Positions 61,501-62,896 of a DNA stretch of 64,000 nucleotides are shown piece by piece. Positions within the stretch are counted from its first letter, which is position 1. Every line of letters starts with the position of its first letter. Under the pieces are notes generated by a model. It searched no databases and was not told where the DNA came from. It saw only the letters and a list, made by a program, of their open reading frames with translations. This DNA is from Heptranchias perlo (lineage: Eukaryota): the NCBI RefSeq assembly GCF_035084215.1, contig NC_090357.1:19034001-19098000 (forward strand), written 5' to 3'. The translations under genes were made by a program, and so were the position numbers.

Positions 61501-62896
61501 ACAATTAGCTTAAATAAGCTGGTTCTATATTGGATGTGCTTGTTAATAGTGTATGTTTCCGTAAATGGTTTGGTACAAAAGTTGTTGCGTCCATAATTAA
61601 TACACACTCAGTCCGTATACTGTAGATCTATAAAAAGTCACTGTCGTTCTACTTATTACAAGATATGCAAATACTTTACCATAAATCTGTATCCGTGTTC
61701 CTTGTCCTTTTCTCTCTAACGGCGGGTAGACTATCGGTACCTTCACCACACAGACCGAACTATAATTAGAGTGACCATAAGAAACATTTTCAATCTTCAG
61801 TGATGCAACACAGCGGCTAAAGCCACCCTGAGCAACGTCAGGAATGCAAGTCGGTTTATTCTCTTCATAGTGAATAGTAGGGAATCCTGGAGATCTCGTG
61901 TACCAGGCTGTACGGACCCAGTCACTATCATTTCCACGATAATTAAATGTACAGTTTATAATGACTGACTCTCCTCTCAGGACACTGACCAGACACGGCT
62001 GCAACACAGTCTCAACAAGCGGGAAACCTGATGGAATAAAATAAGTTTGTCATTTTCAGTTTGGGTCCAGTTAGTAATTCTTTTAACATAAATGGGAAAC
62101 GTCAAAAACTAAATTTAAACAATGCTGAATTTTAAATATTGTTTCTATTGGATCTGATATAAATAACTGTTAAAATATTTGTATTCTTTTCCAGCTTTAA
62201 TTCTAAACTATGTGACAGTTTGAGATCTGATATTCTGCAGTAATGTTCTTTTACTATGTTGAATTTGGAGATGCCGGTGATGGACTGGGGTTGACAATTG
62301 TAAACAATTTTACAACACCAAGTTATAGTCCAGCAATTTTATTTTATTTTTAGCTTGTGAATTTAAAATAAAATTGCTGGACTATAACTTGGTGTTGTAA
62401 AATTGTTTACAATATGTTGAATTTGTTGTTTTCTATATAAACCGTCCCAGACTGATCAGGATGTTGCCACAAGATCTTGTTTCCAGTTCTGTGAACTCGA
62501 TGGTATCATTGAGCACTGTTCAATGAATGACCCACTTTTACTCAAGCTCCACACAACTTTAAATAATCCGACCCTTGTCGCAGTGTAAAGATTCACAATC
62601 AATAAATACTCAAATTATTACCTCAACCTAAATGTAAGTTATGGAGAGGAGACTGAACCCAACCAACGTGATGTGGGGCTTTGAACAATAATCTTAAAGT
62701 GTCCAAATGACACGGCTCTTTCTAACTTAGACTCTCTCTGCAGTTACACAGTCACAGAAAAATGCTGAAGTATTTTAAAAGGGGAATAGGATGCCTCTAA
62801 AATCCATATCCTAGCTCTACGTTAATTTACCGATCAGAGTGACTTACCTCGAACTCCTGTTTGTAAAATCAAAAACAGCTTCAGCAAGAGTTGCAT
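4544..62896 (-). CDS. Multi-exon gene: type I IgSF receptor (SP-V-C1/C2-I-TM-ITSM/ITIM tail), putative inhibitory immune receptor; 3' end uncertain
   Basis: Nine exons joined by GT..AG introns with consistent phases (62848-62896, 61680-62027, 54407-54709, 52345-52665, 51718-51819, 17369-17396, 10654-10697, 4796-4852, 4601-4713) give a stop-free 455-codon frame; read-through of the last donor adds 18 aa to TAA at 4544-4546. One Ig domain per phase-1 exon is the standard IgSF layout. Confidence 0.85.
4601..4713 (-). CDS. Exon 9: cytoplasmic exon with YxN sites and ITIM-like VSYADI
   Basis: 82-nt intron, acceptor ttctttttatccccag; [38 protein letters not shown]; then either donor AAG|GTATTA to an unseen exon or read-through to TAA at 4544. 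Confidence 0.78.
4796..4852 (-). CDS. Exon 8: cytoplasmic exon with ITSM ([19 protein letters not shown])
   Basis: (CT)n upstream, acceptor tttgcag, donor A|GTAAGT, 57 nt, phase 1-1; TVYAEV fits ITSM consensus TxYxx(V/I). Confidence 0.8.
5860..8480 (-). mobile_element. Old LF-SINE-like element split by a CR1 insertion (halves about 5860-6112 and 8374-8480)
   Basis: cccagctgagaacagccaattca at 8387 is the degenerate reverse complement of tgagttagctgatct seen at 36433; boundaries approximate. Confidence 0.4.
6113..8373 (-). mobile_element. CR1 LINE (family A), 5'-truncated, decayed
   Basis: RT fragments [46 protein letters not shown]; (CATAAGAA)n tail at 6113. Confidence 0.92.
9885..10378 (-). 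mobile_element. CR1 3' fragment (distinct subfamily)
   Basis: ORF2 C-terminus [27 protein letters not shown]; cataggaacgtaggaa tail. Confidence 0.75.
10654..10697 (-). CDS. Exon 7 (putative 44-nt cytoplasmic exon, [15 protein letters not shown])
   Basis: T-rich tract ttttgttttattttgtctgttcaag (AAG acceptor, less common), donor CGG|GTAGGT; phase 2 to 1 restores frame into the ITSM exon. Confidence 0.6.
12415..14800. mobile_element. Highly decayed PIF/Harbinger transposon
   Basis: Minus-strand [22 protein letters not shown] (14190-14396) resembles the Harbinger transposase C-terminal CxxLHN motif; plus-strand remnant near 12825-12880 resembles the Myb/SANT gene start; ggccctgaaattcc terminus-like sequence at 12418. 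Boundaries approximate. Confidence 0.5.
15650..16080 (-). mobile_element. Old CR1 3' fragment
   Basis: Degenerate ORF2 end and 3'UTR ([24 protein letters not shown]). Confidence 0.7.
17369..17396 (-). CDS. Exon 6 (putative 28-nt cytoplasmic micro-exon, DPVNVSIEL)
   Basis: Very strong acceptor tttttctttctttctccag and donor GAG|GTGAGA; phase 1 to 2, complemented exactly by the 44-nt exon at 10654-10697. Confidence 0.65.
17880..20130 (+). mobile_element. CR1 LINE (family C), internally deleted
   Basis: Endonuclease remnant ([14 protein letters not shown]), jump near 18705, RT ([30 protein letters not shown]), (TTCTATGA)n tail. Confidence 0.92.
18407..18497 (+). mobile_element. LINE family B 3' tail inserted in CR1
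   Basis: Reverse complement of the family B 3' end with A-tail; 6-bp direct repeat ACTTCA at 18401-18406 and 18498-18503; removal restores CR1 GDFNYP. Confidence 0.8.
20718..21160 (+). mobile_element. tRNA-headed Deu-domain SINE (SacSINE1-like), decayed
   Basis: gctcagttggtag..gggttcaa head, gtta aagatcccatggcactattt..aagaagag core, L2-like tail; homologous to 23394-23830. Confidence 0.7.
21765..21935 (+). mobile_element. CR1 family C 3' end fragment
   Basis: Matches 19960-20130 including (ATTCTATG)n tail. Confidence 0.8.
22877..22981. mobile_element. Foldback MITE (Harbinger-like termini)
   Basis: Imperfect palindrome over its whole 105 bp (GGGGCCGAAATTCCTTGG versus reverse complement GGTCCTGAATTTCCTCGG); TTT on both flanks. 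Confidence 0.65.
23394..23830 (+). mobile_element. tRNA-headed Deu-domain SINE (SacSINE1-like)
   Basis: A box tggctcagagg, B box ggttcaagttc, core ctgtctttcagatgaaatgttaaac..caggtggatgtaaaaga, tail ggctgtaaagcgttttgggacatcctgaggtc. Confidence 0.8.
25435..25865 (+). mobile_element. tRNA-headed Deu-domain SINE, decayed
   Basis: Collinear similarity to 23394-23830. Confidence 0.7.
29560..30060 (+). mobile_element. LF-SINE-like element interrupted by a Deu-SINE/L2 tail (about 29850-29965, minus)
   Basis: tagctgatctc motif and body similar to 36350-36725; insert matches 63600-63710. Confidence 0.45.
30098..30443 (+). mobile_element. tRNA-headed SINE sharing head and tail with LINE family B
   Basis: aaaaacccaactggttccctaatgtccttcagggaagggaacctgcc matches the reverse complement of 58355-58402; tail gcaataaatctggtcttgccagcattgtccatatccca matches the family B 3' end. 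Confidence 0.75.
30687..30748. repeat. Two-copy tandem duplication (30-bp unit, period 32)
   Basis: CTTTGCCTTGCATCCGTTTCATTCACAGAC at 30687-30716 and 30719-30748. Confidence 0.9.
32187..34845 (-). mobile_element. CR1 LINE (family C), decayed, hosting a nested CR1
   Basis: RT fragments [30 protein letters not shown]; 3'UTR split at 32262/32913. Confidence 0.9.
32263..32912 (-). mobile_element. CR1 family A 3' fragment nested in family C 3'UTR
   Basis: (CATAGAAA)n tail; [34 protein letters not shown] repeated at both junctions (32258-32262, 32913-32917). Confidence 0.88.
35310..35445. mobile_element. MITE with about 40-bp TIRs
   Basis: GTGAAATTGGACATGGG(TG/CA)GAGACACAAAACAGG inverted at the two ends; CAA on both flanks. 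Confidence 0.8.
36350..36725 (+). mobile_element. LF-SINE-like element
   Basis: tctgtgctgagttagctgatct motif, recalled from LF-SINE consensus; needs RepeatMasker confirmation. Confidence 0.5.
38091..38203. mobile_element. Harbinger-type MITE
   Basis: TIRs GGGGTAGAAAT / ATTCCTACCCC, 3-bp flanking duplication ATT, CpG-rich interior. Confidence 0.7.
41821..43622 (+). pseudogene. Harbinger Myb/SANT-like DNA-binding protein gene, 3 exons, frameshifted
   Basis: [24 protein letters not shown] / [29 protein letters not shown] (frameshift near 41900), donor GTGAGT at 42060, exon 2 with RTGGGPP (about 42352-42508), acceptor ttctcttgcag at 42625, second frameshift near 43175, basic C-terminus [10 protein letters not shown]. 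Confidence 0.8.
43810..44175 (-). pseudogene. Harbinger transposase N-terminal remnant, catalytic DDE region absent
   Basis: [18 protein letters not shown] joined to [33 protein letters not shown] (HARBI1-type helix-turn-helix region); no DGT/GDxGY motifs follow. Confidence 0.75.
46454..46829 (+). repeat. Local duplication copy 1 (of 48831-49222)
   Basis: About 375 bp collinear with 48831-49222, roughly 90% identical by eye. Confidence 0.92.
47612..48529. repeat. 24-bp minisatellite (CAGACACTCCCAGCTCTGTGCCAT)n, about 38 copies
   Basis: Head-to-tail units with 23-bp and substitution variants; degenerate units also at 46897-46995; explains the 8-aa repeat ORFs. Confidence 0.97.
48831..49222 (+). 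repeat. Local duplication copy 2 (of 46454-46829)
   Basis: Same sequence; here it continues into an old CR1 3' remnant to about 49460. Confidence 0.92.
49461..49975 (-). mobile_element. CR1 family A 3' fragment
   Basis: (CATAAGAA)n tail; [34 protein letters not shown]. Confidence 0.92.
50025..50322 (+). mobile_element. LINE family B internal fragment
   Basis: [27 protein letters not shown], as in ORF 55942..56649. Confidence 0.88.
50325..51240 (-). mobile_element. Old CR1 RT remnant
   Basis: [19 protein letters not shown]; degenerate VDFQKAF region near 50850. Confidence 0.7.
51718..51819 (-). CDS. Exon 5: transmembrane segment [34 protein letters not shown]
   Basis: Acceptor ctctttcacag, donor G|GTAAAA, 102 nt, phase 1-1; long hydrophobic run then WKK stop-transfer. 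Too short for the ORF track. Confidence 0.9.
52345..52665 (-). CDS. Exon 4: Ig I/C2-set domain
   Basis: Acceptor tctttactgatag, donor G|GTAAAT, 321 nt, phase 1-1. (Y)GP start, [29 protein letters not shown]. Confidence 0.93.
52745..54240 (-). mobile_element. L2-type LINE, internally deleted
   Basis: (CAA)n tail with L2-like 3' end, endonuclease remnant [27 protein letters not shown]; purine-rich plus strand. Confidence 0.75.
54407..54709 (-). CDS. Exon 3: Ig constant-type (C1/C2-like) domain
   Basis: Acceptor tcctctcccgcag, donor T|GTGAGT, 303 nt, phase 1-1. [21 protein letters not shown] (C-x-x-x-H of C1-like domains). Confidence 0.92.
55433..55627. mobile_element. Decayed MITE
   Basis: GGTGGAATTTCTAAAGCC versus reverse complement GGGTAGAATTTTCCAAGGCC; central CATTAATATCAATG near-palindrome. 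Confidence 0.5.
55776..58564 (-). mobile_element. LINE family B with intact 5' end (tRNA-like head, single EN-RT ORF, decayed)
   Basis: Head 58564-58495 with A box TAGCATAGTGG and B box GTTCAAATAC; ORF from 58310 runs into APE endonuclease ([20 protein letters not shown]) then RT (MFADD); about 470 bp missing at 55941; A-tail at 55776. Confidence 0.9.
59372..60453 (-). mobile_element. L2-type LINE 3' part
   Basis: [37 protein letters not shown]; 3' end matches 52745-52980. Confidence 0.85.
61680..62027 (-). CDS. Exon 2: Ig V-set domain with J-like GQGT motif
   Basis: Acceptor ttttattccatcag, donor G|GTAAAG, 348 nt, phase 1-1. VIINCTF (B-strand Cys), AWY (C-strand Trp), SLKIENV (E strand), [24 protein letters not shown] (F-G); overlaps track ORF 61597..62007. 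Confidence 0.92.
62268..62412. mobile_element. Penelope-derived inverted-repeat insertion with 13-bp TSD
   Basis: 50-bp perfect inverted repeat (62297-62346 / 62364-62413); flanking direct repeat TATGTTGAATTTG (62255-62267, 62413-62425). Confidence 0.85.
62848..62896 (-). CDS. Exon 1: signal peptide [16 protein letters not shown](G)
   Basis: ATG at 62896, 49 nt, hydrophobic core, strong phase-1 donor GAG|GTAAGT; joins the V exon in frame (G+GT=Gly). Confidence 0.85.

Follow-up and report, generated by a model that had tools for sequence, protein, structure and literature searches.

A candidate inhibitory paired receptor with VJ-, C1- and C2-type immunoglobulin domains in the shark Heptranchias perlo

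The window analysed here, 64,000 nucleotides of the Heptranchias perlo genome (assembly GCF_035084215.1, contig NC_090357.1, forward-strand positions 19,034,001 to 19,098,000), holds most of a gene for a type I membrane protein with three immunoglobulin (Ig) domains. The exon for its V-type domain had been placed exactly by the original prediction, which was made from the sequence alone: it is 348 nt long and of phase 1-1, with its acceptor AG at 62029-62028 and its donor GT at 61679. The end of the exon was also read correctly, though its first residues are GFPLVET, seven upstream of the supposed start VLQP. Two further Ig domains, likewise predicted, are spliced to the V exon, but a transmembrane (TM) exon, a tail with tyrosine motifs and neighbouring paralogs had been overlooked.

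The V exon is 100% identical to XP_067827137.1 (P0001 in Table 1), a 498-residue H. perlo protein automatically named Siglec-14. Its order is leader, VJ, C1, Siglec-like C2, uncharged TM segment and a 129-residue tail, which carries three immunoreceptor tyrosine-based inhibitory or switch motifs (ITIM/ITSM: TVYAEV, VSYADI, SEYSVV). A 2800-nt contig of sequencing run X1 joins the leader, V, C1 and third Ig domains with zero mismatches, and run X2 likewise splices the V exon to the C1 exon; runs X1 to X3 come from one sample of unstated tissue, and we guessed them to be of RNA type, none being recorded as RNA. The gene is real, mis-annotated and expressed at least as this spliced contig.

Table 1. 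Exons of the window gene (window positions) and its linked copies (contig C36 of the genome, G000)
Feature	Position	Strand	Evidence
Exon 1: 5' UTR and leader, ATG at 62896	62848..63061	-	contig X1 bases 1-216; splice flanks; P0001 residues 1-16
Exon 2: VJ-type V, Cys-Trp-Cys and family Cys pair, proline FG loop, GxGT	61680..62027	-	sequence, splice flanks, contig
Exon 3: C1-set domain	54407..54709	-	Pfam C1-set 33.4 bits (cut-off 21); spliced in contig
Exon 4: C2/I-type domain, nearest Siglec-like genes of contig C45	52345..52665	-	Pfam; spliced in contig
Exon 5: uncharged TM segment	51718..51819	-	P0001 match, splice flanks; absent from listed X1 contig pieces
Exon 6: cytoplasmic	17369..17396	-	P0001 match, splice flanks
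Exon 7: cytoplasmic	10654..10697	-	P0001 match, splice flanks
Exon 8: ITSM TVYAEV	4796..4852	-	P0001 match, splice flanks
Exon 9: ITIM VSYADI	4601..4713	-	P0001 match, splice flanks
Last exon: SEYSVV and stop	just left of window, ~C36:19033795-19033926	-	P0001 match
Gene 1 (window gene)	C36, exons as above	-	
Gene 2	C36:19.12 Mb		
Broken V copy	C36:19.18 Mb		
Gene 3	C36:19.19 Mb	opposite	

Pfam scores the V-set match at 21.9 bits for the exon's open reading frame, below the cut-off of 26, and at 41.5 bits within the whole protein. The third domain matches Ig_3/I-set without any C1 match, and 26 of its 27 matches outside the paralog cluster fall on contig C45, which carries Siglec-like genes. 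The second domain of gene 3 finds UrIg2 (top, E 1e-10), SIRP-gamma, IgE and B7-H6 as its best matches in the PDB. By its sequence, the protein is a mosaic of an antigen-receptor-type VJ-C1 unit on a Siglec-type stalk and tail, and the latter account for the automatic name. The suggestion that the gene bears on the ancestry of antigen receptors is upheld, because domain 2 is C1.

A genome search with the V domain gave four matches, all on C36 within 91 kb, and the cluster also includes a partial C1 copy besides the broken V copy. Both gene 2 and gene 3 have the full set of three Ig exons and carry an arginine in the TM segment; in gene 2 a stop two codons past that segment leaves a two-residue tail. 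Because two paralogs carry the TM arginine, one of them with so short a tail, the locus has the appearance of paired inhibitory and activating receptors, with similar linked ectodomains borne on an ITIM form and on charged-TM forms. Between genes 1 and 2 the V exon shows an excess of nonsynonymous change (dN 0.26, dS 0.16, dN/dS 1.64) over C1 and C2 together (dN 0.10, dS 0.18; dN/dS of the other domains 0.52 and 0.56), with bootstrap probabilities of 0.04 for dN not exceeding dS in V and 0.005 for omega in V not exceeding that in the C domains. Gene 3 differs from genes 1 and 2 at synonymous sites by 0.31-0.35 in V and 0.63 in C1+C2, an order reversed in 0 of 5000 resamples; this lower V divergence fits an exchange of V exons. 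About 45 kb past gene 3 (L019:1673-1966 and L241, C36:19.23-19.24 Mb) lie a short V exon that lacks the J motif and one more Ig-like fragment, a possible ligand candidate.

Members of the same family occur in catsharks, a sawshark, horn shark, whale, zebra and bamboo sharks, a skate, an electric ray and a manta, and, outside cartilaginous fish, in coelacanth, paddlefish, sturgeons, bonefish, eel and a mormyrid. Tetrapods and clupeocephalans gave no member among the matches listed in our word-based searches, which is weak evidence. Of 18 members scanned, 15 have a C1-set second domain, and shark and bony fish orthologs are only about 30% identical. Assigned by eye from a table, the tails of 21 family proteins comprise twelve of ITIM type, which extend to coelacanth, bonefish and the mormyrid, six that are motif-free and follow an arginine near the TM start (P0003, P0007, P0012, P0033, P0035, P0075), and three that are short or incomplete. 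The coelacanth long-tailed and arginine forms are identical at 326 of 335 aligned residues. Two models, P0010 (V joined directly to an ITIM tail, no TM) and P0006 (V-C1-TM), are splice variants or prediction errors. Automatic names in the family include Siglec, MAG, SIRP-like, VCAM and peroxidasin. Our literature searches turned up no account of a paired VJ-C1-C2 family, though works on tetrapod VJ-C1 genes or supplements could mention the gene; tetrapod VJ-C1 genes were described in earlier studies, as cited in PMC10751288. The family is apparently undescribed: its class of mechanism is known, while the family and its mix of domains are seemingly new.

The V domain had been called germline-joined VJ. 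It is encoded by a single, non-rearranging VJ-type exon, but it is not germline-joined in the sense of shark Ig genes. As originally noted, no recombination signal sequence (RSS) interrupts the exon: no heptamer-spacer-nonamer was found in 54000-64000, and a lax scan gave two matches in the window, at 9737 and 12712. The G strand is only J-like, with GxG preceded by K, R, E or T in the family and never by Phe or Trp. A rearranging or germline-joined Ig or TCR gene was rejected on the absence of an RSS and of the FGxG J consensus, and on the placement of the family outside the Ig/TCR clade in three trees. An alignment of fourteen V rows has eight invariant positions, among them two extra cysteines, the first of which is missing from one further sturgeon paralog. 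In the family V rows the F-strand Cys is invariant, the canonical B-F pair is retained and there is no F-strand Arg. The best AlphaFold model of the domain (pLDDT 84; others 57-69) has one short strand between strands C and E, and a long loop separates the extra cysteines, so that the V domain is predicted to lack C'' and to have a long D-E loop closed by an extra disulfide. A fold search with this model left TCR, IgL, PD-1, SIRP-alpha, Siglec-15, P0 and VNAR domains tied at Z 10.5-11.8, with SIRP-alpha (Z 11.0) level with many V domains; the rows listed show no clear CD28, CTLA-4 or NKp30, an absence that excludes nothing. Foldseek returned light chains, PDB sequence searches were dominated by antibodies, and the ESM Atlas gave generic V-set clusters only.

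The YPP of the FG loop had been compared with the MYPPPY loop of CD28 and CTLA-4, and here the original prediction fails. This gene has a proline at Cys+5 and PP at Cys+9/+10 with no Tyr after it, whereas the CD28/CTLA4 exons of this genome have PPP at Cys+7 to Cys+9 and then Tyr, which puts YPP two residues out of CD28 register. Of 15 shark and ray genes, all have PP and 11 have YPP; the coelacanth has VPP, PP is found in none of six ray-finned genes and PPP in none of 23 family genes, and there is no EIP motif. The distance from Cys to GxG is 15 in fourteen of 16 family rows and 14 in two. It is also 15 in the genome's CD28/CTLA4, CD28H and CD28X exons and in several unrelated-looking VJ exons. 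A special link to NKp30, also proposed, is not supported: NCR3 has a distance of 12 and scores 27.9 bits against the family profile. The labels NCR3, Siglec, IGSF6, TCR and IgL on our comparison exons are ones we presume from familiar motifs.

A relation to CD28 was partly right, in the length of the loop and in top relatives with CD28H-like loops, and is not supported as to family membership, given the three Ig domains. In PMC11599192, the CD28 family is defined by a single IgV-TM-tail structure; the three Ig exons spliced together here do not agree with that architecture, and the motifs PPP, P-x-P or EIP at Cys+5 to Cys+9 are not matched. By the motifs in that paper, the genome's CD28/CTLA4, CD28H, CD28HL and CD28X exons lie on C7, C32, C1 and C6. 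No published synteny marker of a CD28 member was among the genes found in 1.06 Mb around the gene by an exon finder that is incomplete. On its sequence features, the gene is probably not a CD28-family member such as CD28 or CTLA-4, and binding of a B7 ligand by its V domain is unsupported.

We scored comparison V exons, of which 47 of 48 were parsed and whose set was seeded with CD28-like queries, against the family profile. The highest bits went to an exon on C27 (46.9) and two on C11 (44.3 each), followed by CD28H (39.7), an exon on C38 (37.3) and CD28/CTLA4 (35.9), with Siglec (25.2), IgL (up to 24.7) and a nectin-like exon (16) below NCR3. Leaving out the G strand makes the ranking less distinct (CD28H 25.5, Siglec 26.0). 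The two top-scoring genes that we followed up are both VJ-C1: the C27 V and one C11 V are each followed by a C1 exon. A tree of 63 rows recovers the family, from sharks to basal teleosts, as one clade (99/94) with Siglec plus C27 as sister (87/91), and a tree of 42 chosen rows gives 99/96 with C27 as sister (83/86); no SIRP V exon was in the trees. Approximately unbiased (AU) tests rejected none of Siglec (p 0.47), CD28/CTLA4 (p 0.37) or NCR3 (p 0.23) as sister. The family is thus a solidly supported clade in these sequence trees, which do not fix its sister group. Of two findings that the original prediction had named as telling against it, YPP is indeed not conserved in all members, and a grouping with Siglec V domains is not reliable, appearing in one of three trees at the AU value just given.

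Several VJ-type genes elsewhere in the genome deserve description. The C27 gene (L110/L214, 44.88-44.90 Mb) scores highest of the family's relatives: its VJ domain is held in a single exon and has a PPP loop, C1 and TM-like exons come next, and a B7-like V exon (L232) lies about 40 kb away. On C11, the VJ exons at 53.8-54.4 Mb (L119, L120, L121, L154, L237) have CD28H-like EIPPP or IPPP loops, and at least one has a downstream C1; that one would combine a CD28H-like V with a C1 domain, unlike the single-V members in PMC11599192. Three near-identical VJ-C1 genes adjoin a B7-like V-C gene at 48.03-48.15 Mb of the same contig (L182, L186, L187, L216-L218). A VJ exon whose loop reads SPP, close to light-chain genes (L127, C28:10.20 Mb), may be CD28HL3-like, an unverified assignment; PMC11599192 did not find CD28HL3 in cartilaginous fish. 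More unnamed single-exon VJ genes with proline-containing loops lie at C38:24.4-24.8 Mb (L128, L129, L166).

In our view the gene probably encodes the inhibitory partner in a family of paired leukocyte receptors that occurs in sharks, rays, coelacanth and early-branching bony fish. The mechanism proposed here is modelled on known paired receptors (SIRP, CD33-related Siglecs, NITR). Engagement of the V domain of the VJ-C1-C2-TM protein would lead the tyrosine motifs of the tail to recruit SH2 phosphatases, probably SHP-1 and SHP-2, while the TM-arginine paralogs would probably act as activating receptors by way of an ITAM adaptor such as FcR-gamma or CD3-zeta. By the same analogy, the receptors would be expressed on leukocytes and recognize a self ligand exploited by pathogens, with the activating copies as counter-receptors; most likely they would work as SIRP-alpha/beta or the NITRs do. 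Some points weigh against this account. In a V-only tree (61 rows, two long rows omitted) the family is not one clade, and CD28/CTLA4 is nested within it on a branch of 2.2. Only one of five AlphaFold models reached pLDDT 84 and the C'-D region stands at 64, while the best whole-ectodomain Foldseek matches are MAG, CD22 and nectin-like adhesion molecules. The dN/dS values come from one gene pair with 11.5 synonymous differences, and the TM arginine lies near the outer edge of the TM segment.

The gene might instead be a checkpoint receptor derived from the CD28 family, with the proline loop binding a B7-family ligand, which we judge unlikely. In its favour are the Cys-to-GxG distance of 15 shared with CD28/CTLA4, CD28H and CD28X, the ranking of C27, C11, CD28H and CD28/CTLA4 over NCR3, Siglec and IgL, and the AU value for a CD28/CTLA4 sister; CD28HL3 and PD-1 also have ITIM tails (PMC11599192). 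Yet CD28-like queries seeded the comparison exons, and the lead shrinks without the G strand. The single-V definition fails, PPP and EIP are lacking, ray-finned members have lost PP, the named CD28-family genes lie on other contigs, and a diversifying V domain would suit a conserved B7 ligand poorly.

Siglecs are defined by an F-strand Arg and a B-E disulfide in place of B-F. A divergent receptor of the Siglec/MAG lineage with an acquired VJ-like tip, as the automatic NCBI names imply, is very improbable: the family keeps the B-F pair, has neither the F-strand Arg nor the Siglec cysteine pattern, and differs from the Siglec-like exons of C45 and C14, which show FR at the F strand. The C2-set membrane-proximal domain and the tail with ITIM and ITIM-like motifs are Siglec-type features, as are the C45 matches of domain 3, MAG and CD22 at the head of the three-domain Foldseek list, LIM2 190 kb off and the Siglec plus C27 sister in one tree; against these stand the C1 nature of domain 2 (domain 2 of the C45 genes scores 15-17 bits on the family profile) and the separate position of Siglecs in two of three trees. 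Scant credence goes to a nectin/CADM-like adhesion molecule of V-C1-C2 type that is not a leukocyte recognition receptor. Paired ITIM and arginine forms, fast V evolution, a J-like G strand, the 16 bits of the nectin-like exon and the low identity of shark and bony fish orthologs outweigh the shared domain order, the high Foldseek places of Necl-4 and nectins, and the IgLON and LIM2 markers in the region.

The neighbours in 1.06 Mb are a GLB1L-like gene, LIM2 (the only PDB match, E 4e-18; one copy found), a cystathionine beta-synthase-like gene with a PALP match between LIM2 and the cluster (L037-L039, C36:18.96-18.98 Mb), the cluster itself, another Ig gene, what we take to be an otoancorin/mesothelin-like gene (no Pfam match), and an IgLON with one OPCML/NTM-like and one NEGR1-like exon. 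We assume these to be markers of the human 11q25/19q13/21q22 paralogous set, within which LIM2 presumably points to 19q13.4 and GLB1L to 11q25, in conflict. A further IgLON is located on C11, so the VJ-C1 genes of that contig may be ohnologs. The MHC class I exons are on small contigs and so give no reading on MHC linkage. On C45, Siglec-like clusters occupy 3.5, 10.3-10.5 and 13.6-13.9 Mb, some exons lacking the usual FR, and the sole CD3-epsilon-like match is at 10.73 Mb. Introns of the window gene hold a tandem array of ~20-nt units (47540-48540) and what we take to be broken LINE-type reverse-transcriptase copies (960-3450, 39680-41450, 55900-58400) and a Harbinger-like transposon remnant (41680-44400).

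The analysis adds an old, paired VJ-C1-C2 family concealed under wrong automatic names. Few paired inhibitory/activating receptors are traceable from sharks to bony fish, and the family is therefore a testable candidate for natural killer (NK) or myeloid self-recognition in sharks. A bolder idea, which we regard as possible but doubtful, is that the family and the C27 and C11 VJ-C1 genes with CD28H-like PPP loops are survivors of a pre-RAG, non-rearranging VJ-C1 clan, from which CD28-type V domains derived by loss of C1, with the shark family a chimera of that VJ-C1 unit with a Siglec-type stalk and tail. On that reading, a paired-receptor system of NK or myeloid cells would date back more than 400 million years and would have been lost in tetrapods and in most teleosts.

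Among known systems, NKp30 (NCR3) shares a single-exon VJ and has a TM arginine like the activating forms here. Orthology was rejected: NKp30 is a single domain with the shorter loop, a separate NCR3-like exon lies on C42, and no tree of three groups the two; an NCR3 sister is not rejected by the AU test (p 0.23). The Siglecs (MAG, CD22, CD33-related) are similar in domain 3, tail style and paired forms, and differ in the sialic-acid Arg, the disulfide pattern, the C1 second domain and the J-like strand. With the CD28 family (CD28, CTLA4, ICOS, CD28H, CD28HL1-3, CD28X, PD-1; PMC11599192) there is a common VJ-like exon, a proline FG loop of equal length and GxG, but the shark family has three Ig domains, no PPP/EIP, other extra cysteines and other loci, and no YxxM/YxN tail motif was noted in it. 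The NITRs (bioRxiv 2021.06.11.448072) likewise have single-exon VJ domains and clustered inhibitory and TM-arginine activating forms; the shark family has neither their six-cysteine I domain, its domain 2 being C1-set, nor the FGxG J consensus, and it carries C1 and C2 and is found in sharks and coelacanth. UrIg/UrIg2 and other non-rearranging VJ-C1 genes (PMC12227049, PMC10751288) also join a single-exon VJ to C1, whereas the shark family has one C1 then C2, a signalling tail, and a place other than C42, which holds tapasin-like and NCR3-like genes. SIRP-alpha/beta resemble the family in a non-rearranging VJ followed by C1 and in paired ITIM and charged-TM forms, and SIRP-gamma and SIRP-alpha are among the best PDB matches of domain 2. 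SIRPs have a VJ-C1-C1 ectodomain and a TM Lys where the shark family has Arg. The third domain departs from that plan, being C2/I (Ig_3/I-set, no C1 match) rather than C1, and the family has extra V cysteines; by analogy, the SIRP family would be its best functional counterpart.

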